The notes below the pieces were generated by a model. It was not told the origin of the DNA. It searched no databases and saw only the letters and a list, made by a program, of their open reading frames with translations. A DNA stretch of 32,000 nt, taken from assembly GCA_043808785.1 (NCBI GenBank), contig JAZDEL010000001.1, positions 60,001-92,000 on the forward strand, written 5' to 3'. Position 1 is the stretch's first letter; every line of letters begins with the position of its first letter. Source of the stretch: Candidatus Iainarchaeum sp. Lineage in GTDB: Archaea; Iainarchaeota; Iainarchaeia; Iainarchaeales; JAZDEL01. Positions 8,615 through 25,795 of the stretch are shown piece by piece. Made by a program: the position numbers and the translations under genes.

Positions 8615-9958
8615 TTGGTGGGCAATGAAAACGGAACATCGGCAATCGAGAAGGCAAAAAACGGCGGCGTGAAGTTCGTGCAATTGCAGTTCACGGACCT
8701 TTTCGGCGCGATTAAGGAGGTGACAATTCCCGCGCGCCACCTTCAGGAAAGCATAGAGAAGGGCACATGGTTCGACGGCAGTTCCATAGAGGGCTTCGCG
8801 CGCATTTGTGAGTCGGACATGTACCTGAAGCCGGATGAAAGCACGTATGCCGTGATGCCCTTCGCGGGGCCGAACGGAAAAACCGCGCGCCTCATCTGCG
8901 ACGTTTACTCCCCGAACGGAAAGCCATTTCCCTGCGACCCGCGCAACATACTGAAAAATACTCTCGCAAAGGCGCGGGAAATGGGCTTCACATATAACAC
9001 AGGGCCCGAGCTTGAATTTTTCCTTTTCAGGAGGGAAAACGGCATCCCCACGGGCGTGATGCACGATTCCGCGGGTTACTTCGACCTTTCGACCTTAGAC
9101 CTTGCCTCGGGCATAAGAAGGGAGATTGCCGTGGCGCTCGAGGCGTTCGGCATAGATGTGGAGATGGCGCACCACGAGGTTGCGGAAGGGCAGCACGAGA
9201 TAGGCTTCAGGTATGCTGACGCCCTAACAACAGCGGACCGCGCCCTCACGCTGAAATTCGTTGTGAAATCAATTGCAAACTCACACGGCCTGCACGCAAG
9301 CTTCATGCCCAAGCCGGTTTTCGGGATAAACGGCAGCGGAATGCACGTGCACCAGAGCCTTTTTGCGGGGGGCGGCACTAACGCCTTTTACTCCGCGGAT
9401 TCAAAATACAAGCTTTCCGAAACAGCGCTCTCTTTCATTGCGGGGCAATTGAAGCACGCGCGCGAGTTTTCCGCCGTAACCGCGCCCACGGTGAACAGCT
9501 ACAAGCGCCTTGTTCCCGGTTATGAGGCTCCCGTTTACATTTGCTGGGGGCAGGTGAACCGCTCCGCACTTATCCGCGTTCCCTCATGCCCCAAAGGCAG
9601 GGAGCAGTCTGTGCGCGCGGAACTGCGCTGCCCAGACCCCTCATGCAACCCTTACCTTGCTTTTGCCGCGATGCTTGCCGCGGGGCTTGACGGGATTGAA
9701 AAGTGCCTTGCCCCTCCCGGGCCCGTGGAGGAGGATGTTTACGGGTTCAGCAGCGAGAAGCTGGAAAGCAGCGGCATAGCAACATTGCCCGGCTCCCTGA
9801 ATGATGCCGTGCGCGAGTTCGGAAAAAGCGGGCTCATGCGCGAAGTTTTCGGTGAAAGTGCGTTTTCAAAATACGTGCGCGCAAAGGAAGCGGAGTGGGG
9901 CGAATACAGGATTCACGTCACGGACTGGGAAAAGGAAAAGTATTTCGGGAAAACCTAG
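8615..9958 (+). CDS. glnA: glutamine synthetase, type I
   Basis: 447 aa with the beta-grasp N-domain (VKFVQLQFTDLFG) and catalytic motifs (MAHHEVAEGQHEI, NGSGMHVHQSLF, NSYKRLVPGYEAP, NRSALIRVP). TTG 8615 or GTG 8618 follows AGGAGG. Confidence 0.95.
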   Translation: MVGNENGTSAIEKAKNGGVKFVQLQFTDLFGAIKEVTIPARHLQESIEKGTWFDGSSIEGFARICESDMYLKPDESTYAVMPFAGPNGKTARLICDVYSPNGKPFPCDPRNILKNTLAKAREMGFTYNTGPELEFFLFRRENGIPTGVMHDSAGYFDLSTLDLASGIRREIAVALEAFGIDVEMAHHEVAEGQHEIGFRYADALTTADRALTLKFVVKSIANSHGLHASFMPKPVFGINGSGMHVHQSLFAGGGTNAFYSADSKYKLSETALSFIAGQLKHAREFSAVTAPTVNSYKRLVPGYEAPVYICWGQVNRSALIRVPSCPKGREQSVRAELRCPDPSCNPYLAFAAMLAAGLDGIEKCLAPPGPVEEDVYGFSSEKLESSGIATLPGSLNDAVREFGKSGLMREVFGESAFSKYVRAKEAEWGEYRIHVTDWEKEKYFGKT

Positions 9959-9989: not shown

Positions 9990-10253
9990 ATGCCGCACGC
10001 CACGAACGAAAAAATAAGCGCAATCCTCTCGCGCAACGCGCGCGTGGAGCGTGACAAGGCATGGGAGGTAAGCAAAACAAGGCGCGCGATTATTGCCGTT
10101 GCGACCTACCTCGTGATTCTGTATTTCCTCCTCCTCATAAACGCCCCGAACCCCTACACAAACGCGCTTGTTCCCGCCGCTGCCTACCTGCTCTCGACCC
10201 TCTCCCTGCCCTTCATAAAAAAATGGTGGGAAAAGGAATTTTACAAGGGTTAA
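9990..10253 (+). CDS. small membrane protein, unknown function
   Basis: Two hydrophobic helices. ATG 9990 is in frame with the ORF-track TTG at 9972. Confidence 0.5.
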   Translation: MPHATNEKISAILSRNARVERDKAWEVSKTRRAIIAVATYLVILYFLLLINAPNPYTNALVPAAAYLLSTLSLPFIKKWWEKEFYKG

Positions 10254-10294
10254 GCAAGGATTTTACAAAGGTTAAACGCGCTGTTGTGGTTTGC

Positions 10295-10651
10295 ATGGAA
10301 AAGAAAAATCTCCGTTTCTGGTTCCGCCTTGCGATGATTCCGCTGTTTCTCATCCTGTTCTGGCAGCTCGGCCTGCCTTTCGAGGCGCTTGTTGTGCTCG
10401 GCGCGATAATGCTTGTGCTTGTGCTGATGAGGGGAAAAATGTGGCGCGCTGCGGACCGTGCTGTCGAGCGCTGGCTGCCGTTCACAAAAAAGTGGCCCGA
10501 CTGGGGGAGAAAGGTTGTTGTGGTGCTTGTGTTCATTGTCGCGCTCGCGCTGCTGAAGCAGATAGTTTATTTCCTGCTCTCGCTTGCGGGAATCGACGTG
10601 CAGCGAATAATGATTGATGCGGTGAAGCAGGGAAGCGTTCAGGGCGCGTGA
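10295..10651 (+). CDS. membrane protein, unknown function (about 4 TM)
   Basis: MEKKNLRFWFRLAMIPLFLILFW... The ORF-track start at 10061 overlaps the previous gene, so ATG 10295 is preferred. Confidence 0.55.
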   Translation: MEKKNLRFWFRLAMIPLFLILFWQLGLPFEALVVLGAIMLVLVLMRGKMWRAADRAVERWLPFTKKWPDWGRKVVVVLVFIVALALLKQIVYFLLSLAGIDVQRIMIDAVKQGSVQGA

Positions 10652-10672
10652 TTTGCTTATCGGCCTTTGGGC

Positions 10673-10951
10673 TCACTTCTGCCTCTGCTTCGGCAGCATC
10701 ACTTCAGTGTTCGCGTCGTTAACGAAATTCGCCATCTTTTCCGAAACAGGGCGGAAGGGCTGTGCAGCCATTTCACGCCCTTCCGCGCCGTTGTCGCCGT
10801 GCTGCCTTACTGTTCCCGGGATGTAAACGGCCTTCCCCTTGAGCATATCGAGCCCCGAAACCTGGAAAAGGCTTCTGCACTTCTGCGAGCAGAAAACATT
10901 GTCACCCTTAACTTCATAAATTATCCCGCAGCGCGGGCACATCTTTTTCAT
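10673..10951 (-). CDS. zinc-ribbon protein with CxxC...FCSxxC (zf-FCS/TRASH-like) motif
   Basis: The N-terminus MKKMCPRCGIIYEVKGDNVFCSQKCRSLF carries the motif. The rest of the protein is low complexity. Confidence 0.6.
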   Translation of the reverse strand: MKKMCPRCGIIYEVKGDNVFCSQKCRSLFQVSGLDMLKGKAVYIPGTVRQHGDNGAEGREMAAQPFRPVSEKMANFVNDANTEVMLPKQRQK

Positions 10952-11136
10952 ATTTACACCCGTTATCCGAATGCCGATTGCCGCCTGAATTATGTTCGGA
11001 AATTATTAAATAACCCCCGCTCCAGTGAGGAAGCCGGGCACGCCGGGCTGGATGAACCGTATCCCCCGCGCGATTGTGACCATGCCCCTCGTTGTGGAAA
11101 GCACCATTGCCCCCCGAAAAGGAAAAGTCGGGGCCT

Positions 11137-11316
11137 TCAGTCGCCGCTTATGTACATGTCCCTGCACCTTGGGCTGCAGAACCTGTGGGCATATAGGCTG
11201 CCGGACTGTTCGGCCAGCTCATTGCCGCAGTTCATGCATTTCGGCGCGCCCCTGCTGTATGCAAAGGTGCCGTTGTTCGCAGCCCTGTCGGAATACCGCT
11301 TGTTAACATAATTCAT
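11137..11316 (-). CDS. zinc-ribbon protein with CxxC...FCSxxC (zf-FCS/TRASH-like) motif, 59 aa
   Basis: MNYVNKRYSDRAANNGTFAYSRGAPKCMNCGNELAEQSGSLYAHRFCSPRCRDMYISGD. GGAGG lies 7 nt before ATG 11316, and the ORF-track start at 11367 is likely too early. Confidence 0.6.
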   Translation of the reverse strand: MNYVNKRYSDRAANNGTFAYSRGAPKCMNCGNELAEQSGSLYAHRFCSPRCRDMYISGD

Positions 11317-11339
11317 TGTCCCGCCTCCATGAACGGATT

Positions 11340-11426
11340 TTAATAGTCGTCGTCCGCGTCCTCGCAATCGCCGCCGAACGAATCGTCATCGCCGTCGTCG
11401 CCAAACTGCCGGATTATTTTTGCCAT
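11340..11426 (-). CDS. acidic micro-ORF 1 (28 aa): MAKIIRQFGDDGDDDSFGGDCEDADDDY
   Basis: My own translation; the ORF is below the track's size cutoff. It ends 23 nt before the zinc-ribbon gene start. Shares MAK..F..DDDSF..D-rich features with micro-ORF 2. Only a weak G-run precedes the ATG. Confidence 0.4.
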   Translation of the reverse strand: MAKIIRQFGDDGDDDSFGGDCEDADDDY

Positions 11427-15524: not shown

Positions 15525-16463
15525 ATGCTGCCGGCACTCATTGTTTTTTTCGCCGCCCTTGCGGTGCTCATGCTGAGCAGCAGGATTGTGATAGATAAAT
15601 CGATAAAAATTTCCGAATACCTCGGGATTTCACAGCTTGCCGTGGGGTTCATACTTATCGCCATTACCGTTTCCCTTCCCGACCTGGTGGTTTCCGTTAT
15701 GGCATCCTACTCGGGCAGCCCGGAGATGGGGGTAGGCGACGCGCTAGGCAGCACAGTTGCGAACATCTGCCTCGTGCTCGGGATAGTGACGCTTGTCAGG
15801 AGAATAAACGTGGAGCGCAGGCACGTGCTCGACAGCACGGAACTGCTCCTGCTTATAGGAGCCGTGCCCGCGATTTTCCTCGTTCTCGGCACCATGGGCA
15901 GGATCGAGGGCGTTGTGCTGCTCGTGCTTTTCCTGATTTACTGCTTCTTCATAATAAGGGGAAATTTCAGCCTGAAGATAAAGGACGGGGTTTCGCACAG
16001 GGACATCGGGAAAACCGTTTTCCTCTTCTTCATTTCCCTTGCGGTTGTTATGCTGAGTTCGGGATTTGTTGTGGGCAGCGCCGGCGAGGTTGCGCTTGCC
16101 TTCGGTTTCGGCGAGGCGGTGCTCGGCCTTACATTAATCTCTTTCGGCACGACCCTGCCGGAGCTTGCCGTGGATTTCGCCGCAGTCAGGAGGGGGCAGA
16201 CCGCGCTTGCCATCGGCGACATACTCGGCAGCAGCGTAGTAAACCTCACCCTCGTGCTCGGCTCGGTGCTCGTGATAAACCCGCTAAAGGAGAGCGTATC
16301 GGTTTTCACGCTGGCGATTGCGTTCGTGATTATCTCGAACACATTCCTTTTCTACTCCCTTGTGAAGCACGAGGGCATAGGGAAGAAGCAGGGGATAGTG
16401 TTCATACTGATGTACGTGCTTTTCATAATAATGTCCCTGGGCTCGCGGGCGATTTCGGGATAA
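15525..16463 (+). CDS. Ca2+/cation antiporter (CaCA, Na+/Ca2+ exchanger family)
   Basis: Two alpha-repeats, GDALGSTVANICLVLG and GDILGSSVVNLTLVLG. Starts 2 nt after the preceding stop. Confidence 0.85.
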   Translation: MLPALIVFFAALAVLMLSSRIVIDKSIKISEYLGISQLAVGFILIAITVSLPDLVVSVMASYSGSPEMGVGDALGSTVANICLVLGIVTLVRRINVERRHVLDSTELLLLIGAVPAIFLVLGTMGRIEGVVLLVLFLIYCFFIIRGNFSLKIKDGVSHRDIGKTVFLFFISLAVVMLSSGFVVGSAGEVALAFGFGEAVLGLTLISFGTTLPELAVDFAAVRRGQTALAIGDILGSSVVNLTLVLGSVLVINPLKESVSVFTLAIAFVIISNTFLFYSLVKHEGIGKKQGIVFILMYVLFIIMSLGSRAISG

Positions 16464-16491: not shown

Positions 16492-18660
16492 TCAAATTGA
16501 CAGGCGGGCAAGCAGATATGCAGTCGTGGATTCAGCACCCTCATTGGCGTTCACTCCCTGCCTTGTTATTCCGTCGAAGCAGCCCCCGCTTGCCCTGTCG
16601 TAAACTTCCATGTTTGCCGAGTTCTTCCCGAGGAACCAGTCGAACGACTCCCTCGCGCTTTTCAGGTATTTTTTGTCCCCTGTTTTTTTGAATGCCGCGA
16701 GGTATGCCGCGGTCATTCCCGAGGCCTCGAGCGGCTGCTGGTCGTACAAAGACCGCTCCCCGCCCCTTTCGTACCATTTTTCCTGCCCTATTGGCACAAG
16801 CTTGCCGTTTATGAAAACCGTGTCGGTAAGGAACGACAGCGACTCAACAGCGACCTCCTTAGCCCTCCCGCCCCTGTCGTATTCGTGGCATTCGAACAGC
16901 GCCTCGGGGATCCTGCTGTTGTTGTACGTGAGGTACGGCTCGAACCATTTCCAGCTTTCGTCGCTTTCGGATTCGTACCTCGAAACAAGGGAATCGATGA
17001 GCCCGCCCATGAGTTCCGGTGCCTTTTCAGGCACAGCCTTTGCCACTGCGAGCCCCATCAGCGTGTGTGCCTGCGCCCTCGGGGATTTTATCTCGATGCC
17101 GTGTTTCAGCGTATCATCCAGTATTTTTTTCGCCCTCAGCCTGTGTTCATCCGGCAGGCCGCTGCCGTACGCGTGCCCGAGCGCCCATACCGCGCGCCCG
17201 AAACTGTCCTCGCTGCCTTTCTCATCCATGAATTCCCGCCTGCCGCTGAGCACATTGTGGAACCCGCCGTCGGGAGTGCCGCATTTTTCTATGAAATTAA
17301 TGAAAGTATCCGCAAACCTCAGCATTCTCCTCGTGCCGAACCTTTCATAGCCCTTTGCCGCAACCATAAGCGCGCGGGCGTTGTCGTCGAGCGTATATCC
17401 GCTTCCTATGTCGGGCGTTGTGTAATCCGCGAACTGTATCATGCCGAAATCGTCCGTCATGTTCGAGAAGTGCCTGAAGCTTATGCGCGGCAGCCCGCTT
17501 TTGGTTTCAATCGGCGCAAGTTCCCCCAGCGCGTTCAGGTACTGTATCGAAACGTTCGGCCATGACATCTTCCTGCTGAACTCGAATGCGTTCTTCTCCA
17601 TGCCGCGCCTGAGCGCGTTGTCCGAGAGAAGCCTTATCGCCCCATCCGCAAACCCCTTCGGGCTGTTGTCCGCGACAATAATTCCCCTGCCGTTCGCAAG
17701 GATCTCCTCGTTGTATTTTGTTTTCGAGGCGACGATTGCCTTGCCCGCACCGAGCGCGTAACTTACTGTCCCGCTGGTTATCTGCTTCTGGTCGAGGGAT
17801 GTCGCGAAATAAACCGTAGCAATCTGCAGGAAGTCGGTTATCTCCCTTATGGAGAGGAACTTGTTCCAGAACTTCACATGCTTGCCCGCCCCCGTTTTCC
17901 TCACCAGCGCCTTAAGTTCGTTCCTGTAATCCTCGCCGCTCTCCTCCCTCACTTTCGGGTGGGTCTGGCCGAGTATCACGTAGATGCAGTCCGGATGCCT
18001 CTTCACTATTTCCGGCATCGCCATTATCGCGTTTTCAATTCCCTTGCCCCTGCTCAAAAGCCCGAATGTGAGTATTATTTTTTTCCCCTCAAGCCCGTAC
18101 TTTTTCTTTATCGCCTCGCCGCTCCCGAAACTCACGGGCGGCACGCCGTGCAGTATGACCTTCATTTTTTCCCCAGGCACGCCGTAATGCTCTACGAGTA
18201 TTTTTTTCGCGTTCTCGGTCATCACGACAACAGTATCGCTGTGCGCGAAAATATCCCGCACGACATCCCTCATTCCCTGTTCGGGGTTTTCGAGCACGGT
18301 GTGCAGCGTAGTGATTATTTTTTTGTCCGTGCGCTCCATAAGCCTTATCAGATGCGAGCCGTAATTCCCCCCGAATATCCCGAACTCGTGCTGCACGCTG
18401 AGCACATCCGCGCCGCGCATGGAGTTTATCTTTTCCGCGGCGGCATCATAGCTCTCTATATTCGGCTCGGTTATCGTGCAGATTACGTTCTTAGGGTATT
18501 TGCGGAAGATGGATTCGTCCTCATTCATGGCTATTATTGCGGGGCTGATGCCGTTGCCCGCCTTTTTACTGATGGCGTCGGAGAGGTCCCTTGTGAAAGT
18601 CGCTATTCCGCATTCCCTCGGATGGTATGTTCCGAGAAAGAGTATTTTTTTCGCGCCCAT
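16492..18660 (-). CDS. GT4 glycosyltransferase fused to a ~330-aa C-terminal (alpha/alpha)-toroid-like domain
   Basis: The N-terminal ~390 aa is a typical GT-B/GT4 fold (KILFLGTYHPRECGIATFTRDL...). The C-terminal half (MIQFADYTTPDIGSGYTLDDNARALMV...FGRAVWALG...) looks like a six-hairpin glycosidase fold. Confidence 0.8.
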   Translation of the reverse strand: MGAKKILFLGTYHPRECGIATFTRDLSDAISKKAGNGISPAIIAMNEDESIFRKYPKNVICTITEPNIESYDAAAEKINSMRGADVLSVQHEFGIFGGNYGSHLIRLMERTDKKIITTLHTVLENPEQGMRDVVRDIFAHSDTVVVMTENAKKILVEHYGVPGEKMKVILHGVPPVSFGSGEAIKKKYGLEGKKIILTFGLLSRGKGIENAIMAMPEIVKRHPDCIYVILGQTHPKVREESGEDYRNELKALVRKTGAGKHVKFWNKFLSIREITDFLQIATVYFATSLDQKQITSGTVSYALGAGKAIVASKTKYNEEILANGRGIIVADNSPKGFADGAIRLLSDNALRRGMEKNAFEFSRKMSWPNVSIQYLNALGELAPIETKSGLPRISFRHFSNMTDDFGMIQFADYTTPDIGSGYTLDDNARALMVAAKGYERFGTRRMLRFADTFINFIEKCGTPDGGFHNVLSGRREFMDEKGSEDSFGRAVWALGHAYGSGLPDEHRLRAKKILDDTLKHGIEIKSPRAQAHTLMGLAVAKAVPEKAPELMGGLIDSLVSRYESESDESWKWFEPYLTYNNSRIPEALFECHEYDRGGRAKEVAVESLSFLTDTVFINGKLVPIGQEKWYERGGERSLYDQQPLEASGMTAAYLAAFKKTGDKKYLKSARESFDWFLGKNSANMEVYDRASGGCFDGITRQGVNANEGAESTTAYLLARLSI

Positions 18661-18869: not shown

Positions 18870-19964
18870 CTACCTCGTGCGCTGCAGCGAATCCAGTATC
18901 GCGCGGATGCGCACTTTCCTCGCGGAGATGCATGTGTCCGCGCCGCCGCTGTAGACAATCACGCTCTTTCCGTCAATGTCCGGTATTGCCGCTGTCGGGA
19001 ACACCACGCCCCCGAGGAACCCCTCGGTTTCAAATTCGTATTTCGGCGCGAAGAGCGGCTCCCTTGCGGGGCTTATGCCGAGCACTTTCCCGGGGTTCTT
19101 CAGGTCGAACAGCACCGCGCCCGCGCTGTATATTTTCTTAGAGGACGGGTTGCGCCTGTTTTTCAGGTGCACGCCGTGGTATATCGCAAGCCAGCCCTCA
19201 TCCGTCTTTATCGGCACGCTCCCCGCGCCTATGCGCAGCGCATCCCAGCCCGTCTTCCTCGGCTTCATTATCGGCCTGTCCTTTCCCCAGAAAACAAGGT
19301 CCTTCGAATATGAGAGCCAGATGCCCGGCTTGTCGAATATCATCGTTCCCTCCGGCCTGTTCATCGCCACATAGTAGCCGTTTATTTTTTCCGGATAAAT
19401 CACGACATCCTTGTTCTGCTGCCTGAAAATTATCCCTTTTCTCTCCCAGATGTTGAGGTCGTTCGAAAGCGCGAGAGATGTGGAGACGCCGCTGGACATG
19501 GATATCGAAACATAGGTCATCGCGTACCGCCCCTCCTTCGCGAAGTGCGTTATTCTCGGATCCTCGACCCCGAAATCCCCGTCCTCGGTCCTCCCCGCGA
19601 AATCCATGGTTCCGCTTATTTCCTCGGCGTGCATTCCCCCCTTATCGAGCAGAATCTTCCTGATGTGCGATAATGTCGGCAGCCTGTAGATTTCGTCGTT
19701 CATGACAAAGAGGCCCTCGCGCTGCTTCATCTTTTCCCTGCGTATCCTTTCTATGACGAAATGGCTGCGCTCCCTTCCCGCGAACCTCGGCGCTATGAAT
19801 GTCTTCTCGTCGTGGTATGGCGTTTCCGCAACCCTTGCGAAAAGCAGTATTTTTTTGTTCTTCAGCCTTACCGCCGCGGGGTTGAACACGCCCCTTACCC
19901 TCATGCTTTTCAGGCTGGGCATCACCTGTTCGGGCGTGACAACTAACGTTGCTTTCGCATCCAT
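18870..19964 (-). CDS. GH130 family beta-mannoside phosphorylase/hydrolase (DUF377-type glycosidase)
   Basis: FNPAAV, GVEDPRIT, NKDVVIYPEKING, GWDALRIGAG and AIYHGV are five-bladed propeller GH130 hallmarks. Confidence 0.85.
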   Translation of the reverse strand: MDAKATLVVTPEQVMPSLKSMRVRGVFNPAAVRLKNKKILLFARVAETPYHDEKTFIAPRFAGRERSHFVIERIRREKMKQREGLFVMNDEIYRLPTLSHIRKILLDKGGMHAEEISGTMDFAGRTEDGDFGVEDPRITHFAKEGRYAMTYVSISMSSGVSTSLALSNDLNIWERKGIIFRQQNKDVVIYPEKINGYYVAMNRPEGTMIFDKPGIWLSYSKDLVFWGKDRPIMKPRKTGWDALRIGAGSVPIKTDEGWLAIYHGVHLKNRRNPSSKKIYSAGAVLFDLKNPGKVLGISPAREPLFAPKYEFETEGFLGGVVFPTAAIPDIDGKSVIVYSGGADTCISARKVRIRAILDSLQRTR

Positions 19965-20012
19965 GCTACCTATTAACGCATGCCAGTATTTATTTTTTTT
20001 GCCCGCGGCAGA

Positions 20013-21776
20013 TTAAGCCCTTATGCGGCCTGAAGACGCCCTGTCCGCAATTACAACGGCATTCCTGTGCTTTTGCAGTATTGAGGCGGGGCATTTTTCA
20101 CCCGGCTTTCCCTTGGCCATCCTTCCCATTGCCGCGGCCTTCTCCCTGCCGCCCGCCATAAGCACAACCGCCCTTGCGCGCATTATCGTCTCAAGGCCGA
20201 TTGTGATTGCCGTCCTCGGCACACGCTCCCCCTTTTCGAAAAACCTTTTGTTCGCCTTAATTGTGCCCCCGCTCAGTTCCACAATGCGGGTTTTGCTTTT
20301 GAAGTTCGTTCCGGGCTCGTTGAACGCGATATGCCCGTTCCTGCCTATGCCGAGCAGAATTAAATCTATGCCGTGCGCGCCAGCAAAATTTTCAAACCGC
20401 GCGCACTCCGCCTTCAACTCCTTTGCAGAGCCGTCGAAGAGGAAAACATTTTCCTTCCGCGCGTTTACCTTCCCGAGGAAATTTTTCATGAGGGAGCAAG
20501 CGAAACTGTTCCTGTGCCCGTGCGCCAGCCCCGCATATTCGTCAATGCCGAAGAATTTAGCCTTTGAGAAATCAACATGCCCCGCCCTGTGCGCCTTCAC
20601 GAGTTCCGCATATGTTCCCGAAGGCGTTCCCCCCGCGGGAATTCCTATAACGCTTTCCGGCTTCCCATTCACTTGCCCGATTATCAGTTCCGCAGCCCTC
20701 TTCGAAAGTTCGCCGTAGCCCTTCACTGCCTCGAACTGGATGAGGTTTTTGCCCCGCATGTATTTCAGGATTTCATTTTCCCGCGGCACTGCAAGCCCGT
20801 GCCTTGCCACTTTCGTTCCGGCAACGAAGTTCCCTATCCTCAGGCAGTTCCTTTCCGACCAGCCGTTGATTTTCCCGTAAATGAAGCCCGCGTTGAAAAC
20901 ATCCCCTGCAGCGGTTGTGTCTAGAGCCCTGGCGCGCACCGCTTCTTCGTGAATAATTCGCATCGCTCCCCCCCTCCCTCCCGCGCCAGCGGAGTAAAGC
21001 GTTGCCCCCTTCCCCCCCTCCTTGAGCACCACGCACCGCGCGCCGCTGCGGATGAGATGCTTTATTTTCTCCTTGTGCCCCTTACCTTTTGCAACCTTAC
21101 CAAGCTCCACTTCGTTCAGGAAAAGCATGTCGATGCATTTCAGCATGTGCTTAATCTTCCACTCCCCGTGCTCGTCATAGCAGAGGTCTAACGCCGTTAC
21201 GCAGCCCGCCCTTTTCGCGCGCCCAAGCAGTTCCGCAAAACCCTTGCGCATTGCGCGGAGATGGAAATATCCGCCCGAGTAAACAATATCCCCCGCCCTC
21301 AGCCTTGGCAGGATTTTCCCCCCTATCATTTTGGACGTCAGCTTTCCAAGCGCGCCCTTTATTGAATATATCGCCCTCTCGCCTTTTTTGCCAACCATTA
21401 TCACGGAGCATCCGTTCTGCCCCCGCACTTCCGCAGGGTTCAGTTCCACGCCCGCGGCGCGCAGCGAACCTTCAAGGAACTTTGTCGTGAAATCATTTCC
21501 GGCAGCGCTCACGAGTTCGGTCCGCACGCCGAGCAGTGCCGCGGCATACGCGAAGTTCGCGGCATTCCCGCCGAGCGAAAATGTGATGCCGCGCAATGCG
21601 GCCTCCTCGCCGAATGCCGCCTGCTTCCCCAGTTCGCACAGCACGTCGAGGTTCATGTCGCCTATCGCGAAAACCCTGCGCCCGCCAGCTGCACCGCCCA
21701 AGTAGCCGCCCGCTGCAAAAGCCCTGCGCCCGCCCGCGCCGCCCACGTAACCCGGTGCCGCAAAAACCCCTGTCAT
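20013..21776 (-). CDS. fusion protein: PfkB-family sugar kinase (N) plus glucosamine-6-phosphate deaminase NagB (C)
   Basis: PfkB motifs SLGGNAANFA and DTTAAGDVFNAGF. NagB motifs GIPAGGTPSGTY, FGIDEY and LGIGRNGHIAFNEPG. Start placed at ATG 21776, because the ORF-track start at 22076 would run across the divergent promoter and into the PIG-L gene. Confidence 0.85.
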   Translation of the reverse strand: MTGVFAAPGYVGGAGGRRAFAAGGYLGGAAGGRRVFAIGDMNLDVLCELGKQAAFGEEAALRGITFSLGGNAANFAYAAALLGVRTELVSAAGNDFTTKFLEGSLRAAGVELNPAEVRGQNGCSVIMVGKKGERAIYSIKGALGKLTSKMIGGKILPRLRAGDIVYSGGYFHLRAMRKGFAELLGRAKRAGCVTALDLCYDEHGEWKIKHMLKCIDMLFLNEVELGKVAKGKGHKEKIKHLIRSGARCVVLKEGGKGATLYSAGAGGRGGAMRIIHEEAVRARALDTTAAGDVFNAGFIYGKINGWSERNCLRIGNFVAGTKVARHGLAVPRENEILKYMRGKNLIQFEAVKGYGELSKRAAELIIGQVNGKPESVIGIPAGGTPSGTYAELVKAHRAGHVDFSKAKFFGIDEYAGLAHGHRNSFACSLMKNFLGKVNARKENVFLFDGSAKELKAECARFENFAGAHGIDLILLGIGRNGHIAFNEPGTNFKSKTRIVELSGGTIKANKRFFEKGERVPRTAITIGLETIMRARAVVLMAGGREKAAAMGRMAKGKPGEKCPASILQKHRNAVVIADRASSGRIRA

Positions 21777-21834
21777 GCTGCATTTTAGGCGCAAAGTAGT
21801 ATTTATTTGTTTTTCTGAGCAGCAATTCTGTCTT
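21777..21834. promoter_or_regulatory. 58-bp divergent promoter region with one central AT-rich box (GTATTTATTTG, 21799-21809)
   Basis: The box centre lies about 29-30 nt from both ATG 21776 (minus) and ATG 21835 (plus). Confidence 0.4.
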
Positions 21835-22434
21835 ATGCCGAGGGCGCTTGCTGTGGTCGCGCATCCAGATGACGAAACAATCTGGATGGGGGGTACAATG
21901 CTGATGCATGCCGGCTGGAAGTGGGCTGTGCTTTCGCTCTGCAGGAAAGACGATGCCGACAGGGCTCCGCGGTTCGCCGCCGCGTGCAAACTGTTCGGCG
22001 CCAAGTGCGCGATGTCGGACCTCGACGATGAGAATATCGAGAAGCCGCTCCCCACTTCGCAGGTTAAGTCGCGCATAAAAAAAATGCTCTTGCAAAAAAA
22101 ACTTCCGCGCGCTTACGATTTCATTTTCACGCACGGTGCGAACGGGGAGTACGGGCACAAAAGGCACAAGGAAGTTGCGCGCGCGGTTGTTGAAATGGTG
22201 CGCACCGGGGATTTGAAATGCAAAGAACTCTGGCGCTTCAGCTACTCGCGCGTTGAAAAGCCGTTCATGTGCGTGCCGAAGCGCGGCGCGCCGAAAAAAA
22301 TCGCGCTCGCAGCGCGCGAAGCGCGAATGAAAAAGTATTTAATCACGGACGTGTATAGCTTTAGTGAGGCGAGCTTCGAGGCGCGCTCGTGCTCGGATGC
22401 TGAAACGTTCGATGTGGAGATGAAGAAGAGATGA
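21835..22434 (+). CDS. PIG-L/LmbE family N-acetylglucosaminyl deacetylase
   Basis: MPRALAVVAHPDDETIWMGG carries the AHPDDE zinc motif. The later FTHGANGEYGHKRH is an HxxH-like site. Confidence 0.85.
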   Translation: MPRALAVVAHPDDETIWMGGTMLMHAGWKWAVLSLCRKDDADRAPRFAAACKLFGAKCAMSDLDDENIEKPLPTSQVKSRIKKMLLQKKLPRAYDFIFTHGANGEYGHKRHKEVARAVVEMVRTGDLKCKELWRFSYSRVEKPFMCVPKRGAPKKIALAAREARMKKYLITDVYSFSEASFEARSCSDAETFDVEMKKR

Positions 22435-22470
22435 TGTTGCTTGTCCTGCAAGCGCAGGCGCGGTGAGAAA

Positions 22471-23613
22471 ATGAAGACGCTTGTCATGTACCCTTATCCC
22501 GTGGAGCTCGACGGAGTCAGCATACAGGGCGAGATGCTTTACCGCGGCCTCAGGGAGAACGGCGGCGAGGCAATGCCGTGCGACCTCAAGGCCGATTACG
22601 AAAAGGAGTGGTACTATAAATCATTCAAGCCCGACGTTGCGATAGGCATAGGCTACTGGGGCAACACGCCCGAGCTCGTGATGCACCCGCAGAAATTCGG
22701 AATCAACGCAGTGCCTTGGCTGAACGCGGACGGGTGGATTGCAAATTACCACGATTTGCTTAACTCCCTCCCGCTTATGCTCGTCACGAGCAACTGGGTC
22801 AAGGAAACCTACAACCGCGACGGCATAACAAACAAAAACATCGAGGTCGCGCACATAGGCCTCGACACAAATGCGATGCGCCCGATGCCGAAGGACGATA
22901 TTCGGGTGCAGAAGATACGCGAGATGCTCAAAATAAAGCCCGACGAGCAGATGCTTCTCACAATTGGCGGAGATACAACAAGCAAGGGCTTCCAGGAAGT
23001 GCTCAAAGCCTTGGGGCAGTTGAACGGGGAGTTCGACAACTGGAAATATGTGGGGAAAAGCTGGCAGAACGGCCAGCCCGCCTATCACCGTAAAGCCGAG
23101 TTTAAGATACTCAAGGAATGCGGCATAGACAGGAAAAAAATAGTTTTCATCGACGGCAGCCTGAGCAGGGAATTCGTCTGCCACCTCATGAATGCGTGCG
23201 ATATTTACGCCGCGCCGAGCAGGATAGAGGGCTTCGGCATGATACAGGTCGAGGCGCAGGCGTGCGGCAAGCCCGTGCTCGGCATAGACGCGATGGGCGT
23301 TAAGGACACGGTTGTGCACAACGAAACCGGCTTCCTTGCAAAGGTCGGCGAGGAAACCTTGCTGGAGGAGGAGTGGGCATACAGGCACCACGGCTTTCCC
23401 AAGAAGGTGAAGATAAAATTCCCGCAGCCGCGCGTCATGGACGTGAGGGCGAATGTCGACGATGTTGCGAAATACCTGCGGAAGCTTATGGGGGATAAGG
23501 AGCTGAGGGAAAAGATGGGCGCAAAGGGCAGGGAGCACGCGGTGAAAAACTTCCACTACACAGTGACCTCGAAGCACATCACCGATGTTGTGCAGAAAAA
23601 GTTAGGCATCTGA
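22471..23613 (+). CDS. GT4 glycosyltransferase
   Basis: C-terminal domain with PSRIEGFGMIQVEAQACGKPVLG (E-x7-E motif). GGTGA lies before ATG 22471. Confidence 0.85.
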   Translation: MKTLVMYPYPVELDGVSIQGEMLYRGLRENGGEAMPCDLKADYEKEWYYKSFKPDVAIGIGYWGNTPELVMHPQKFGINAVPWLNADGWIANYHDLLNSLPLMLVTSNWVKETYNRDGITNKNIEVAHIGLDTNAMRPMPKDDIRVQKIREMLKIKPDEQMLLTIGGDTTSKGFQEVLKALGQLNGEFDNWKYVGKSWQNGQPAYHRKAEFKILKECGIDRKKIVFIDGSLSREFVCHLMNACDIYAAPSRIEGFGMIQVEAQACGKPVLGIDAMGVKDTVVHNETGFLAKVGEETLLEEEWAYRHHGFPKKVKIKFPQPRVMDVRANVDDVAKYLRKLMGDKELREKMGAKGREHAVKNFHYTVTSKHITDVVQKKLGI

Positions 23614-23628
23614 TTTTACTGCAGGTTT

Positions 23629-24780
23629 TCATTTCAGCACAGTTCCGAAAACAGGAACCTTCCTCTCCCTCACCGCGCTGTACGCGAACAAATACCCGCC
23701 GGCGCTCCACGCCTGGTAGGCGCCGCCCTGCGCCCTTCCCGTTATCGGGTTTACCCATTCGTTGAATTCCCACTGCGAGTGCGTTCCCAAGCGGTTCGCC
23801 TTTGCAAGGCGCTTCAGTTCCTCTTCCGCTTTTTTGAACTTTCTTGCGGCAACAAGTGCGGAAACGTAAAACCCGCCTATGAACGGCCATATCCCGCCGT
23901 TCAGGTACCACCACGGCTTTGCGGAAAGCGACTGGGTAAAGTACGGCTGCCATTCCGCATCCCCCTTCCTGAGCGCGGGATACATGCACCTTACGGGGTA
24001 AGGGCGGTTTATCCCTTTCCTCTCCACGTACTTCAATATCGCTAGCCCCTTCCCCCTGTCCGCGAGACCGAAATTAATTGCAAGCAGGTTCCCCAATGAA
24101 TCGAACCATGTTCCCTGCTCCACCACGCCGCCGTGGTTCTTCCACATCCACGGGTAATAAAACCCCTTACTGTAATTGAACATCGCCCTGTCGGCGCCCT
24201 TCGGGCCGTTTATTGTTTTCTTTATTTTTTCCGCAAGCATTCCCCTTCCGTAAAGTTTCAGCGCGCAGTAATAAAGCGCCTGCGTATTGAGCACGTGCCC
24301 GTACTTGTGCGGGAAACAGTCCTGCCAGTCGGATGTGGGCTGCTGTTCGGGCATTCCGTCCTCGCCCGCATCCTGGTTCTTCAGCCAGAGGAAGGCGCGC
24401 TCGATGTTATCCGCGTGCTTCCTCACAAGCGAGCCGTCGCCGAAAGCATGCGCATAGGCGTGCTCCCCTATCAGGAACCATAGTGTTGAATCAATTGTCG
24501 CGAACGTTACCTGCTTCCTCCTCTTCGGCTCGAACAAATCCACGCAGTTGGGGATTTGCCCAAGTGCGCTTTGGTGCTTTGCAAGTGTTTCAATGCTTCC
24601 CCTGAAAACGCGAGAGAATTTTTTCTCATACAGCGAGGCGCCGAGCATGGTTATCATGCTGTCCCTTGCCCAGACAGACGTATAGCCGCCCTTATCGCCC
24701 GAAGCGAACAGGCCGTTTGGCGTTACGCACTTTTCAATGGCTTCCACAGCCCTCTCCGCTGCCTCGTTTTCGATGTTCAT
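23629..24780 (-). CDS. (alpha/alpha)6-barrel glycosidase, glycogen-debranching-enzyme C-domain / neutral-invertase-like
   Basis: GGYTSVWARDSMITMLGASL, PTSDWQDCF and WPFIGGFYVSAL resemble GDE_C/GH100-type motifs. Confidence 0.7.
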   Translation of the reverse strand: MNIENEAAERAVEAIEKCVTPNGLFASGDKGGYTSVWARDSMITMLGASLYEKKFSRVFRGSIETLAKHQSALGQIPNCVDLFEPKRRKQVTFATIDSTLWFLIGEHAYAHAFGDGSLVRKHADNIERAFLWLKNQDAGEDGMPEQQPTSDWQDCFPHKYGHVLNTQALYYCALKLYGRGMLAEKIKKTINGPKGADRAMFNYSKGFYYPWMWKNHGGVVEQGTWFDSLGNLLAINFGLADRGKGLAILKYVERKGINRPYPVRCMYPALRKGDAEWQPYFTQSLSAKPWWYLNGGIWPFIGGFYVSALVAARKFKKAEEELKRLAKANRLGTHSQWEFNEWVNPITGRAQGGAYQAWSAGGYLFAYSAVRERKVPVFGTVLK

Positions 24781-24838: not shown

Positions 24839-25795
24839 CTAGGCGGCCATCAGTTCCTCGGCGCCGAACATGACCGCAAGGAAAAAAAAGTAAAGGATGG
24901 CGAGGTATGCCCCCTCCTCCTTCGACAGCCTGTTTTCGGAGTGCGACATGATAATCAGGGTAAGCATCGAAAAAACCATCAGGAAGGCGGTCATTATTAC
25001 CAGCAGGGGGTACTGCGGCTTTATGGGCGATATTACCGCAATCAGCCCGAGCGTGAGCAGGCAGTCGGCAAAGACGTTCCCGAAAACATCCCCCAGCCCG
25101 AGGTCGCCGTGTTTTTGCCTGGCGGCATTGAATGCCAGGGTCAGTTCCGGAAGGCACGTGCCTACCGCAACAACCGAGCCCACGAAAAAGATGGGGAGAG
25201 AAAGGGCGGAGCTGAACCATTTTGCGGAGCCCGTTATTATGTGTGCGGAAAAAATCAGCACGCCGACGCTGAAAATCAGCACCATCAGCTCTTTCCGGAC
25301 CGCAACCCTGCCGTGCTTCGGGCAGGCCGCCCCGCCCCCGGACTTTTTCCTGAGCAGCAAAAAAAGATAGACGAGGAAAGATGCCAGCAGCGCAAACCCG
25401 TCAATCCTCGACAGTTCCCCGTCCAGAAGCAGGATAAACGGCAGCGCAATGAAGGGGAGCAGCTTTTTTATGTCCCTGAAGCTGCTGTCGTGCACCCTTA
25501 CGCCGCCGGCGGCCAGGGCGACAATGCCGACGATAATCGTGAGGTCCGCTATGTTCGAGCCTATGACTATTCCCGCGCCGAAAGAAGGGCTCCCTTCCAG
25601 GGCGGAAATAATGCCTATGAAAAGTTCAGGGAACGTTGCGACAATCCCCACAAACAAAAAACTGACGACGAATTCGGAGAAGCCCCAGTGCCCGGCAAGG
25701 GTTATTATTCTTTTTATGGATTCGGAAGCCGACTTTGACAGCAGGATGAATCCTATTAAAATGGCCGCCGCATTCAAAAAAAAGGCACCAAGCAT
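24839..25795 (-). CDS. Ca2+/cation antiporter (CaCA family), second divergent paralogue
   Basis: Alpha-repeats GAGIVIGSNIADLTIIVG and GLGDVFGNVFADCLLTLG. Confidence 0.85.
   Translation of the reverse strand: MLGAFFLNAAAILIGFILLSKSASESIKRIITLAGHWGFSEFVVSFLFVGIVATFPELFIGIISALEGSPSFGAGIVIGSNIADLTIIVGIVALAAGGVRVHDSSFRDIKKLLPFIALPFILLLDGELSRIDGFALLASFLVYLFLLLRKKSGGGAACPKHGRVAVRKELMVLIFSVGVLIFSAHIITGSAKWFSSALSLPIFFVGSVVAVGTCLPELTLAFNAARQKHGDLGLGDVFGNVFADCLLTLGLIAVISPIKPQYPLLVIMTAFLMVFSMLTLIIMSHSENRLSKEEGAYLAILYFFFLAVMFGAEELMAA

Follow-up and report, generated by a model that had tools for sequence, protein, structure and literature searches.

A PfkB kinase-NagB deaminase fusion in a sugar gene module of DPANN archaea and CPR bacteria

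A gene from a Candidatus Diapherotrites archaeon encodes a PfkB-family kinase fused to a NagB-family deaminase, and lies in a sugar gene cluster that is common to many ultra-small archaea and bacteria and has apparently not been described so far. This module is made up of a PIG-L deacetylase, a short GT4 glycosyltransferase, a GH100-like hydrolase, a GH130 protein and a 722-aa GT4. It is spread over DPANN and CPR contigs, often inside glycolysis operons that also encode a free-standing NagB, a ROK kinase and mannose-6-P isomerase. The enzymes are of known kinds and the pathway is possibly new; the fusion would be the point of exit from a conserved sugar module working in the cytoplasm of DPANN and CPR organisms. 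The window analyzed here is the whole stretch of 32,000 nucleotides, and the small-genome archaeon suspected in a preliminary description of its sequence is indeed a member of DPANN.

The Fusion Protein

The fusion gene (20013..21776, minus strand) is an uninterrupted ORF of 587 aa with an ATG at 21776; upstream of this ATG the reading frame is open as far as 22076. The exact protein is present in NCBI as MFH1224267.1, from a 214-kb contig of a DPANN MAG labelled Candidatus Diapherotrites archaeon, and is annotated “PfkB family carbohydrate kinase.” The kinase domain (~20757-21680; Pfam PfkB, 7e-41) and the NagB domain (~20016-20741; Pfam Glucosamine_iso, 2e-19) abut without a real linker. The translation contains SLGGNAANFA, LDTTAAGDVFNAG, PAGGTPSG, GIDEYAG and GIGRNGHIAFNEPG, and the motifs GGNAAN, NxxE, TxAGD, DEY and NGHxxFNEP are invariant in an alignment of 31 sequences. 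The preliminary claim of a PfkB-NagB fusion is thus borne out by the ORF, the motifs it quoted, the Pfam domains and the intact catalytic residues of both halves. The AlphaFold2 model has a pLDDT of 88.4 and a pTM of 0.88, and a structure search found no solved structure spanning both domains (best TM normalised to the query, 0.46).

Only this copy carries a Gly-rich N-terminal extension (approximately residues 1-32; 21681..21776, minus strand), which is absent from all 30 homologues aligned; these start at approximately residue 33. Its origin is a tandem duplication of 45 bp at the 5′ end of the gene, seen as a repeat array at 21666-21769 (TRF period 45, 2.2 copies, 74% match), and residues 1-31 are predicted to be disordered (pLDDT <50). 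The two-domain protein itself, at 530-569 aa, recurs in independent NCBI, JGI, ENA and Logan assemblies, so the fusion is no assembly artefact. A search for its spread recovered ~35 protein clusters containing the fusion. In a set of 1.84 billion clusters at 50% identity it has 7 representatives, all named ones being archaeal.

The N-terminal half matches ribokinases at ~1e-12 in a PDB sequence search, and among solved structures the nearest, with no more than 20-24% identity, are those of ribokinases, YdjH and sulfofructose kinase. It belongs to a sharply separate PfkB subfamily, whose members score 283-461 bits while the next matches reach at most 139 bits. Kinases of this subfamily are found fused or free, and always within the module. 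Free copies lie inside the module in L004, divergent from PIG-L-GT4 in L176, and in L177 on the same strand as the GH100-like gene and 7 bp ahead of it. In these three loci there is no NagB within 10 kb, so the kinase is not strictly dependent on NagB. The literature searched yielded no PfkB-type GlcN kinase.

Among PDB sequences the C-terminal half is most similar to Bacillus subtilis NagB (2bkv/2bkx), over the full length and at ~4e-54 to 3.5e-53. The folds agree as well, with a TM, normalised to the 2bkv chain, of 0.95-0.96 and an rmsd of 1.2-1.3 Å. Equivalents of D72, H143, E148, R172 and K208 are kept, while the D141 position is N, as in the monomeric B. subtilis enzyme. The TIGR00502 model scores 232 bits on the fusion, 5 bits below its cut-off. 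A free-standing NagB gene is part of the module, or its neighbour, in at least 13 metagenome loci as well as in the Woesearchaeota loci L043 and L072, the latter showing the gene set GH130-NagB-PIG-L-GT4 in another DPANN lineage. Frequent neighbours of such NagB genes are PGK, GAPDH, a PfkB-aldolase-TIM unit, and ROK kinase with mannose-6-P isomerase.

The Surrounding Module

Divergent from the fusion is a gene for a PIG-L/LmbE-family Zn deacetylase of a divergent subfamily (21835..22434, plus strand; 199 aa, MFH1224268.1; Pfam PF02585, 1.6e-11), which probably starts at 21835, in agreement with the NCBI record. This orientation, already pointed out in the preliminary description, is repeated in 11 of 11 fusion loci, where the fusion is divergent from PIG-L-GT4. 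The protein carries AHPDDE and H108xxH111 motifs, HPDDE being kept in 80/80 aligned module copies. It has no PDB sequence match, and the MshB/BshB models give just 15-21 bits. The 58 nt between the two ATGs (21777..21834) hold one A-rich/TATA-like element, AAAAACAAATAAATA (21800-21814, minus-strand reading), which precedes the fusion ATG by 23 nt and that of PIG-L by ~25 nt. An AAA(A/G)AATAAATA element is found at the equivalent position in 12 related loci. AAAAACAAATAAATA is a candidate archaeal BRE/TATA promoter for both genes, whose transcripts would be leaderless.

The PIG-L gene lies directly upstream of the short GT4 gene in 67/67 loci, with or without NagB or a fusion-type kinase, and the two genes overlap in several loci. 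This linkage ties PIG-L to what the GT4 makes, and not to a sugar phosphate. The short GT4, a retaining glycosyltransferase (22471..23613, plus strand; Pfam Glycos_transf_1, 9e-24), is 380 aa long when counted from its ATG at 22471, and its reading frame already opens at a TTG at 22441. No other gene of the module is as well conserved, copies in related loci being 61-79% identical. At E≤1e-20 it has 3352 relatives, the best 120 of which are at least 53% identical, on contigs labelled DPANN and CPR. Its model (pLDDT 90) is nearest in fold to GlgM, sucrose-P synthase, MshA and BshA, which are small-acceptor GT4s, and all NCBIfam GT4 models fall far under their cut-offs.

Next to it is a GH100/GDE_C-like (α/α)6 glycoside hydrolase (23629..24780, minus strand; 383 aa, MFH1224270.1; Pfam GH100 3.7e-15, GDE_C 5.7e-15), annotated by NCBI as “amylo-alpha-1,6-glucosidase.” Its PDB matches at or below 1e-10 are exclusively cyanobacterial and plant alkaline invertases, and a profile search also matched chitobiose phosphorylase (1v7v) at 6e-4. 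The invariant D154 and E341 align with the catalytic pair D189/E415 of InvB. The gene lies within 10 kb of the short GT4 in 18/19 well-flanked loci. Neither of these two partners figured in the preliminary description.

On the other side, 48 nt downstream of the fusion and on the same strand as previously noted, is the GH130 gene (18870..19964, minus strand; 364 aa, MFH1224266.1, annotated “hypothetical protein”; Pfam 1.2e-41), encoding a predicted GH130_4-like β-mannoside phosphorylase. The protein matches the GH130_4 enzymes Uhgb_MS (9eqq, 1.3e-44) and Lin0857 (5b0p, 4.7e-43) end to end, lid-loop region included, but the Man-β-1,4-GlcNAc enzyme Uhgb_MP at only 1e-27. The +1-subsite determinants R47/E136/K184 of the GH130_4 enzymes are present as R44/E134/K185; β-1,4 enzymes rely on a different residue pair (residue roles from PMC12814180). 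The phosphorylase residues are retained. R44, E134, D135, K185 and R203 are unchanged in 18/18 module GH130s, and position 244 is occupied by R in 14 of these and by K in the other 4. The enzyme is therefore predicted to be of the β-1,2-mannobiose/-triose type, and the Man-β-1,4-GlcNAc substrate proposed in the preliminary description is not supported. GH130 is co-conserved with the module, being present in 16/19 well-flanked module loci and in 5/11 fusion loci. Further downstream is the long GT4 gene (16492..18660, minus strand; 722 aa, MFH1224265.1; Pfam Glyco_transf_4 and Glycos_transf_1), found in 15/19 well-flanked module loci and usually paired with GH130; the copies adjoining GH130 in L086 and L090 are 56-57% identical. 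Residues 1-380 form the GT4 catalytic part, and the ~340-aa C-terminal domain that follows gives faint (α/α)6-barrel-like matches only, all under Pfam cut-offs.

A Proposed Route to Fructose-6-Phosphate

If the fusion acts on GlcN, where would this come from? The short GT4 and the GH100-like hydrolase are the tightest partners of the fusion, and the likely source is therefore an α-GlcNAc glycoside made or handled by the GT4, not a host N-glycan fragment. From the domain identities, intact catalytic residues, gene linkage and conservation observed, we infer as follows which substrates are used, which way the flux runs and what the acceptor is. The short GT4 would attach GlcNAc in α linkage to X, a small soluble acceptor, and PIG-L would take the acetyl group off this glycoside to leave GlcN-α-X. 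The GH100-like protein, as an inverting α-glycosidase, would release free GlcN, which the PfkB domain would phosphorylate at O6 with ATP as donor. The fused NagB domain would then convert GlcN-6-P to fructose-6-P and ammonia, feeding glycolysis. The order would be “deacetylate first,” with the final two steps on a single polypeptide; independent ROK-NagB and NagA-NagB fusions back the logic of GlcN to GlcN-6-P to fructose-6-P. The GH130 and long GT4 would handle a β-1,2-mannoside part of the same metabolism, and in other lineages ROK kinase and mannose-6-P isomerase would carry mannose to the same fructose-6-P node. We give this predicted route roughly an even chance of being correct. It is also favoured by the association of free-standing NagB with the module, by the known GT4/PIG-L pairs that make GlcN-α-X and by the invertase-type Asp/Glu pair of the GH100-like protein. 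Against it stand the low identity of the kinase to solved structures, the low scores of the NCBIfam models on the GT4 and of the MshB and BshB models on PIG-L, the loci with the kinase but no NagB within 10 kb, and the regulation that making and breaking one glycoside in one cluster would require. NagB fusions that include PIG-L back it by analogy only, as the PIG-L domains joined elsewhere to NagB or PfkB are no orthologues of the module protein.

Phosphorylation could instead come first, with PfkB as a GlcNAc kinase, PIG-L replacing NagA on GlcNAc-6-P and NagB finishing, in effect a NagK-NagA-NagB route from non-orthologous parts. The two divergent units of the window encode all three activities needed, NagA-NagB and ROK-NagB fusions are known, and NagB-PIG-L fusions are common elsewhere (P0236, NCBIfam NF002557), PIG-L there plausibly standing in for NagA. 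However, the PIG-L domains of the latter have nothing but the HPDD motif in common with the PIG-L of the module. The constant pairing of PIG-L with GT4, whether or not NagB or the kinase is present, also argues against this order, as does the fact that the fusion would then unite the first and the third step, which are non-consecutive; we consider it unlikely. Far less probable is the preliminary N-glycan route, in which GH130 phosphorolyses Man-β-1,4-GlcNAc from cores and the GlcNAc is then deacetylated, phosphorylated and deaminated. Although GH130 is co-directional with the fusion, co-conserved with the module and intact in its phosphorylase residues, its +1 subsite is of the β-1,2 type, 6/11 fusion loci show no GH130 on the available flanking DNA, and both GT4s and the GH100-like enzyme are left unexplained.

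The kinase might also be a PfkB-type 6-phosphofructokinase (PFK), so that the fusion runs from GlcN-6-P through fructose-6-P to fructose-1,6-bisphosphate. This would supply the PFK (PfkA/PfkC types) reported to be widely absent in DPANN, most Diapherotrites included (PMC8407392). Sulfofructose kinase YihV, with its fructose-6-P analogue substrate, is among the nearest folds, and in Woesearchaeota-type loci another PfkB gene takes the same place, divergent from PIG-L, and is followed by class I aldolase and TIM. That PfkB, however, is of a different subfamily (26% identity, GGGGTN vs GGNAAN), and in none of the 15 distinct loci examined does a fusion-type kinase adjoin aldolase or TIM. The phospho-sugar kinase model TIGR03168 gives 44 bits on the fusion vs 90 for the ribokinase model, the co-directional kinase 7 bp from the GH100-like gene in L177 fits a free-sugar kinase, and independent NagB fusions use ROK proteins (hexose/GlcNAc kinases), not PFKs; a PFK role is thus rather improbable. 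Of similarly low probability is an anabolic reading, in which a fructokinase or hexokinase and a reversed NagB (fructose-6-P and ammonia to GlcN-6-P) provide for the UDP-GlcNAc of the GT4 and the GH100-like protein is an invertase-type supplier of hexose. A sucrose-P-synthase-like GT4 (best PDB sequence match 6kih), GH100-like protein and PfkB mirror cyanobacterial sucrose sets, the GT4, if a GlcNAc transferase, would depend on an activated amino sugar, the same window encodes glutamine synthetase, and NagB-family enzymes are used anabolically in Giardia. Yet the NagB equilibrium favours deamination, its other fusion partners (NagA, ROK, PIG-L) are catabolic, and related loci place free-standing NagB among PGK, GAPDH, aldolase and TIM, beside GH130 and the hydrolase. 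No GlmM/GlmU genes were noted in an unsystematic look at the inspected loci.

Comparison With Known Systems

Ribokinase-like PfkB kinases (E. coli and Arabidopsis ribokinase, YdjH, YihV) have the same fold as the fusion kinase (TM ~0.83-0.86) and share the GG loop, NxxE and TxAGD, but the GDLNxD and GGNAAN signatures mark the latter as a separate subfamily. The window GH130 shares the catalytic Asp, the phosphate-binding K/R/R and the β-1,2 R/E/K determinants with the β-1,2-mannobiose phosphorylases Lin0857 and Uhgb_MS (PMC12814180). It differs from these in not keeping lid residue R88 or the nucleotide-site residues P206 and N211, in scoring 231 of 550 bits with NCBIfam NF050092, and in its archaeal/CPR setting adjoining a 722-aa GT4. 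The monomeric, non-allosteric B. subtilis NagB has the same catalytic and phosphate-binding residues, including Asn for E. coli Asp141, but here NagB is the C-terminal half of a two-domain chain. NagB fusions in public data (NagB-ROK, NagA-NagB, NagB-PIG-L and NagB-PIG-L-PGM/PMM) are the nearest architectures. NagB-PIG-L (NF002557 type), NagB-ROK and NagA-NagB likewise join NagB to another enzyme of amino-sugar catabolism, but with other partners and domain orders, and none has a PfkB kinase of this subfamily.

Cyanobacterial sucrose gene sets cluster the same three families (sucrose-P synthase GT4, GH100 alkaline invertase and PfkB fructokinase). In PDB sequence searches the short GT4 matches Tll1590 sucrose-P synthase best, and the GH100-like hydrolase Anabaena InvA/InvB. 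These matches are however weak and half-length, sucrose-P phosphatase is missing here, and the PIG-L and NagB of the module have no role in sucrose metabolism. The chitin pathway of Thermococcus kodakarensis (Tk-Dac deacetylase, GlmA, ADP-dependent glucokinase, GlmD) proceeds by PIG-L/LmbE-family deacetylation first, then hydrolysis, GlcN phosphorylation and deamination to fructose-6-P. The likeness drawn in the preliminary description stands for this logic but not for the kinase and deaminase families, as Thermococcus uses ADP-GK and the SIS-type GlmD on β-linked chitobiose, with no fusion and no GT4, GH100-like or GH130 partners. Finally, it is well established that mycothiol (MshA/MshB), bacillithiol (BshA/BshB) and GPI (PIG-A/PIG-L) synthesis arrive at GlcN-α-X by GT4 transfer and then PIG-L deacetylation, and the bshB1-bshA order, deacetylase then GT4, is the same as that of the module. 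MshA/MshB, BshA/BshB1 and PIG-A/PIG-L are likewise pairs of a retaining GT4 and a PIG-L-family deacetylase, but the equivalog models fail widely on the window proteins (MshA 63/462 bits, BshA 53/274, MshB 19/224, BshB1 15/182). The module has no cysteine ligase, and its GT4/PIG-L pair is instead linked to a hydrolase, a kinase and NagB.

Gene content and conservation of the sugar module

Six sugar-metabolism genes sit within 16.5-24.8 kb of the window, and paralogous Na+/Ca2+ exchanger genes (PF01699) mark the two edges of this island (15525-16463, + strand; 24839-25795, - strand). Open reading frames and Pfam matches identify a long GT4 glycosyltransferase of 722 aa (16492-18660, -), a GH130 protein (18870-19964, -), the PfkB-NagB fusion (20013-21776, -; Pfam PfkB 7e-41, Glucosamine_iso 2e-19), a PIG-L deacetylase (21835-22434, +), a short GT4 of 380 aa (22471-23613, +) and a GH100/GDE_C-like hydrolase (23629-24780, -). 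Elsewhere the window encodes housekeeping proteins, among them V-type ATPase subunits, glutamine synthetase and a DNA glycosylase. The glutamine synthetase gene (8615-9958), about 10 kb from the fusion, could serve to recapture ammonia released by NagB, with no conserved linkage seen. The proteins of the island are found unchanged in NCBI as MFH1224265-MFH1224270, on a 214-kb contig of a Candidatus Diapherotrites MAG, and the small-genome archaeon supposed in the preliminary description was thus a correct guess. The analysis also corrects the public annotation of three of these proteins: GH130 is currently entered as "hypothetical protein", the GH100-like hydrolase as "amylo-alpha-1,6-glucosidase", and the fusion variously as PfkB kinase, 6-phosphogluconolactonase or deaminase.

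At all 11 distinct fusion loci inspected, the fusion gene is divergent from PIG-L, which is followed by the short GT4. The GH100-like gene is found at nine of them, mostly directly beside GT4 (the DNA of one locus, L096, stops at GT4), and at five of the 11 GH130 and the long GT4 adjoin as well, with a sixth contig breaking off inside the long GT4. Identity to the window proteins at related loci is 61-79% for the short GT4, 52-70% for the GH100-like hydrolase, 47-57% for PIG-L and 41-55% for the fusion.

A metagenome scan seeded with the short GT4 yielded 80 loci, over which a tblastn panel was run. PIG-L lies no more than 500 bp upstream of GT4 in 67 of 67 cases. At the 19 loci with at least 6 kb of flank on both sides of GT4, partners within 10 kb were the GH100-like hydrolase (18/19), GH130 (16/19), the long GT4 (15/19), NagB (7/19), a cupin mannose-6-P isomerase (7/19) and a ROK kinase (5/19). 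The GH130, fusion and PIG-L genes singled out in the preliminary description therefore do belong together, but that gene set was incomplete, having overlooked the two most constant partners, the short GT4 and the GH100-like hydrolase. The whole consists of a five-gene core and of variable kinase and isomerase genes, all converging on fructose-6-phosphate (Fru-6-P).

Free-standing NagB genes are embedded in the module too. The order is GH130-NagB-PIG-L-GT4 on contigs L072, L116 and L125, and on L125 the hydrolase and long GT4 come next. Glycolysis genes are interspersed with the module on Woesearchaeota-type contigs. Contig L141, for example, carries GHMP kinase, ROK, mannose-6-P isomerase, TIM, aldolase and PfkB genes on one strand, PIG-L-GT4 divergent from these, and beyond that, on the opposite strand, GH130, hydrolase, NagB, PGK and GAPDH. 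The GHMP-family kinase lies beside the ROK kinase at L092 (2999-3856), L104, L141, L155 and L174; that it is an anomeric sugar-1-kinase feeding mannose-1-P to GH130 is speculation.

Several local variations were seen. In L092 the GH130 and GH100-like genes are separated by an inserted reverse-transcriptase gene (RVT_1), which lies beside an intein-containing CDC48 (10177-11352 and 12610 onward), and the PIG-L gene of L004 (9129-10058) has a low-complexity insertion of about 75 aa. A second module variant has a GT4-adjacent hydrolase on the same strand as GT4 and only about 30% identical to the GH100-like protein of the window (L137, L144, L147, L152-L154, L156, L158, L159, L162, L163, L166, L169 and L173); it probably represents a paralogous (alpha/alpha)6 enzyme of another lineage.

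The short GT4 family is very large, with 3352 matches at E<=1e-20, the best 120 of which are at least 53% identical. Some of the contigs that carry its members are labelled Diapherotrites, Woesearchaeota, Pacearchaeota or Nanoarchaeota, and others bear the labels of the CPR phyla Nealsonbacteria, Nomurabacteria, Liptonbacteria and Falkowbacteria; at least one short-GT4 contig carries a sigma-70-type gene. Across DPANN- and CPR-labelled contigs (window, L092-L175) the short GT4 is 48-80% identical. For two domains of life such a value is unusually high, suggesting that the whole module has spread horizontally. Bin labels may be wrong in part, as L092 is labelled "Nomurabacteria" and yet has RadA-like and CDC48 genes.

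The PfkB-NagB fusion

The fusion itself was confirmed, and every motif quoted for it in the preliminary description is present in the translation. Its NagB half matches the monomeric B. subtilis NagB over the full length (4e-54). Alignment to this protein and to V. cholerae NagB (5hj5, E. coli NagB numbering) revealed equivalents of the catalytic Asp72, His143 and Glu148 and of the phosphate-binding Arg172 and Lys208 of E. coli NagB; all five positions are invariant across 31 fusion homologs. Asn occupies the Asp141 position, as it does in B. subtilis NagB. The NagB equivalog model TIGR00502 scores 232.0 bits, 5 bits short of its cut-off of 236.9, while competing models for galactosamine-6-P isomerase and 6-phosphogluconolactonase reach 139 and 51 bits, respectively. 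An AlphaFold2 model of the fusion built from the 31-sequence alignment (pLDDT 88.4, pTM 0.88) is confident outside residues 1-31, and its NagB fold superposes on 2bkv with a target-normalised TM of 0.95-0.96 and an rmsd of 1.2-1.3 A. A Foldseek search with this model returned no PDB chain spanning both domains.

The kinase half retains G69-G70 (GG loop), N221/E224 (NxxE) and T288-x-A290-G291-D292 (TxAGD, the catalytic-Asp loop), invariant in the same 31 sequences, and its modeled fold resembles ribokinases, YdjH and sulfofructose kinase (Foldseek TM about 0.85). It fits no characterised PfkB specificity among those covered by NCBIfam (ribokinase, fructokinase, KDG kinase, 1-PFK/PFK-2, inositol and nucleoside kinases), the best equivalog being ribokinase at 90 of 300 bits. 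In a profile search with the kinase part, members of the subfamily, both fused and free, score 283-461 bits and the next proteins, ordinary ribokinases, at most 139 bits, so that more than 140 bits lie between the subfamily and all other PfkB proteins.

Residues 1-31 form a Gly-rich extension, predicted to be disordered, that is peculiar to this copy and missing from all homologs. It arose when 45 bp at the 5' end of the fusion gene were duplicated in tandem (21666-21769; 2.2 copies, 74% match). An alternative start that drops the Gly-rich N-terminus is unlikely, given a conserved TATA-like element 23 nt before the ATG at 21776. The 58-nt divergent spacer (21777-21834) holds this single A-rich/TATA-like element, which is about 25 nt from the PIG-L ATG. 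Both the position and the sequence of the element, AAA(A/G)AATAAATA, are kept between the kinase(-NagB) and PIG-L genes at 12 related loci (L001, L003, L004, L084, L086, L090, L091, L096-L098, L100 and L102). This suggests a putative BRE/TATA shared by two co-regulated, leaderless divergent transcripts.

Distribution of the fusion and other NagB fusions

In a word-indexed search both Pfam domains occurred together in 32 clusters (90% identity), which are 41-56% identical and have full-length members of 530-569 aa, and the kinase-part profile search added three further fusion clusters; those with names are all assigned to Diapherotrites or "archaeon". Among 1.84 billion 50%-identity representatives, scanned exhaustively with HMMER, there were seven collinear two-domain representatives and eight free-standing kinases of the fusion-kinase subfamily. 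A GTDB genome scan with the fusion alignment, the source of loci L004, L043 and L072, had no fusion locus among the matches listed, which were mostly free-standing NagB genes. No paper on the fusion architecture or the module was found in the literature searched, and with most subscription journals beyond that search its absence is unproven.

NagB takes part in other public fusions, with a ROK-family kinase, with NagA, and with PIG-L with or without a PGM/PMM domain. The proteins concerned (P0256, P0362, P0331, P0247 and P0259) include NagB-ROK, NagA-NagB, NagB-PIG-L-PGM/PMM (942 aa) and D-glutamate-cyclase-like-NagB architectures. Rosetta-stone support from PIG-L-PfkB (P0041) and PIG-L-NagB fusions was downgraded since the PIG-L domains there have only HPDD in common with the PIG-L of the window; P0041 also sits in an unrelated gene context. 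The PfkB-NagB fusion combines known enzyme families in a new way.

Which sugar does the kinase phosphorylate?

Phosphofructokinase has been reported missing in DPANN (PMC8407392). Woesearchaeota-type contigs have a GGGGTN-type PfkB followed directly by class I (DhnA-type) aldolase and TIM genes, often with PGK and GAPDH nearby (L043 10491-13107; L094 2737-5485; L126, L138, L140, L141, L146, L155, L164 and L175), and this protein is a good candidate for a PfkB-type phosphofructokinase of lineages in which the enzyme has been reported absent. Orthology with the fusion kinase was rejected, as the two are 26% identical and have GGGGTN and GGNAAN motifs, respectively. For the fusion we favor a free amino-sugar kinase over a phosphofructokinase, because the aldolase/TIM-linked protein belongs to another subfamily, because the fusion-type kinase is, at the 15 distinct loci inspected, always found inside the PIG-L/GT4/hydrolase unit and never beside aldolase or TIM, and because independent fusions have joined NagB to further enzymes of amino-sugar metabolism.

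From the fusion to NagB, the linkage to the hydrolase and the existence of ROK-NagB fusions, we infer that the kinase half would phosphorylate glucosamine (GlcN) at O6 in an ATP-dependent manner. On contig L177 a free kinase gene precedes that of the GH100-like hydrolase by 7 bp, both being on one strand, which is the order expected of a kinase that takes up the sugar released by the hydrolase. The pairing of ROK with mannose-6-P isomerase parallels that of PfkB with NagB, in that a kinase is joined with an isomerase leading its product to Fru-6-P. If its sugar is GlcN, the protein would define a PfkB-family glucosamine kinase, of which no description was found in the literature searched, most subscription journals being outside its reach.

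GH130, PIG-L, GT4 and GH100-like proteins

GH130 aligns end to end, including the long lid-loop region, with Uhgb_MS (1.3e-44) and Lin0857 (4.7e-43), which are GH130_4 beta-1,2-mannobiose/-triose phosphorylases described in a 2025 structural study (PMC12814180). In that study the phosphate-binding residues K184, R202 and R242 of Uhgb_MS separate phosphorylases from hydrolases, and R47/E136/K184 are the beta-1,2 determinants of the +1 subsite, the beta-1,4 pair being R150/Y130 in Uhgb_MP (PMC12814180). The beta-1,2 determinants correspond to R44/E134/K185 of GH130, and R202 and R242 to R203 and R244. D137 of Uhgb_MS, which we take to be the catalytic Asp, corresponds to D135. These key residues are invariant in 18 module GH130s with the exception of R244, which is Lys in four. 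The lid loop (about 48 aa in GH130_4) has an aligned counterpart of matching length, in which lid residue R88 is not clearly conserved. The protein is regarded as a divergent member of GH130_4 because it scores 231 of 550 bits with the equivalog model.

With D135, K185, R203 and R244 aligned, GH130 is of the phosphorylase type, as the preliminary description had supposed. The Man-beta-1,4-GlcNAc substrate proposed there is unsupported, because the match to Uhgb_MP (1e-27) is much weaker than that to Uhgb_MS (1e-44) and beta-1,4 enzymes rely on a different pair of determinants, while R44 and the beta-1,2-type E134/K185 are present. The protein is better read as a putative beta-1,2-mannoside phosphorylase, which may also have weak GDP-Man transferase activity.

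PIG-L contains AHPDDE (residues 9-14) and an HxxH motif (H108-K-R-H111); HPDDE is invariant in 80 of 80 copies, and the protein of the window scores 45 bits against a Pfam cut-off of 28. It does not qualify as an MshB or BshB ortholog by the MshB (18.6 of 224 bits) and BshB1 (14.7 of 182 bits) models, and a PDB sequence search gave zero matches. The nearest sequences and folds of the short GT4 are GlgM, sucrose-P synthase, MshA and BshA, which act on small soluble acceptors. The protein could not be placed with any one of MshA, BshA, sucrose-P synthase, TreT or GlgM, as all are equally distant by sequence and fold, and the curated models all fall below cut-off. The long GT4 has a C-terminal region of 350 aa (16492-17550) for which the only family matches are sub-threshold ones of the (alpha/alpha)6-barrel type (GH127, GH76, C5-epimerase C-terminus). 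Its two-domain architecture is kept at 722-740 aa at many loci, usually adjoining GH130.

GH100 alkaline invertases, inverting enzymes of the alpha-glucosidase type, are the only PDB relatives of the GH100-like hydrolase at E<=1e-10; a profile search adds chitobiose phosphorylase (1v7v, 6e-4). The catalytic pair of these invertases is Asp188/Glu414 in InvA (PMC6995568). The invariant D154/E341 of the hydrolase align with D189/E415 of InvB. The match to invertase is significant over the C-terminal 150 residues only, the N-terminal alignment being weak (13 bits), and Arg430 of InvB lies within an insertion absent from the window protein.

A proposed route and its relation to known systems

The formation of a GlcN-alpha-X product (X being the acceptor) by a GT4 and a PIG-L protein is the established logic of MshA/MshB, BshA/BshB and PIG-A/PIG-L, and the gene order here, with PIG-L immediately before a retaining GT4, repeats it. 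Because of this logic, the small-acceptor relatives of the short GT4 and the putative invertase-like catalytic pair of the hydrolase, the most economical route would run from GT4 through PIG-L, hydrolase and kinase to NagB. GH130 and the long GT4 would handle a beta-1,2-mannoside moiety, and the cell may either synthesise the glycoside, as a reserve or solute, or import it. In the preliminary description, GlcNAc released from Man-GlcNAc was to be deacetylated, phosphorylated and deaminated; the link between deacetylase, kinase and deaminase and the flow to Fru-6-P are plausible and backed by conservation, and it is the Man-GlcNAc source that is unsupported. Substrate assignments throughout are predictions.

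Taken jointly, the observations can be read as a module of PIG-L, short GT4, GH100-like hydrolase, GH130 and long GT4, marked by the fusion, undescribed and present across DPANN and CPR, that builds and re-mobilises a small cytoplasmic mannose/glucosamine glycoside, a reading that is tentative and as a whole rather doubtful. The glycoside would be a carbon-and-nitrogen reserve or compatible solute, with a phosphorylase partly replacing nucleotide sugars, and glycolysis would be entered at Fru-6-P via PfkB-NagB for GlcN and ROK-mannose-6-P isomerase for mannose; under the same reading, the Woesearchaeota-type locus also suggests that the phosphofructokinase "missing" from DPANN is a PfkB-type kinase. 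Since DPANN and CPR genomes are minimal and yet keep this gene set in both groups, at 50-80% identity, the module is probably central to their life, and its physical tie to glycolysis genes suggests that a mannose/glucosamine glycoside, cell-made or host-derived, is a major currency of these organisms. The surrounding DPANN/CPR module, apparently undescribed, is a more interesting lead than the fusion, which offers a simple, expressible entry point to it.

The preliminary description had likened the route to the Thermococcus chitin/GlcN pathway (Tk-Dac, GlmA, ADP-dependent glucokinase and GlmD). By family annotation there is no GlmA-like gene in the window, and the two systems have the PIG-L family alone in common: the kinase of the window is a PfkB protein and its deaminase is of the NagB type, unlike the ADP-dependent glucokinase and GlmD of Thermococcus.
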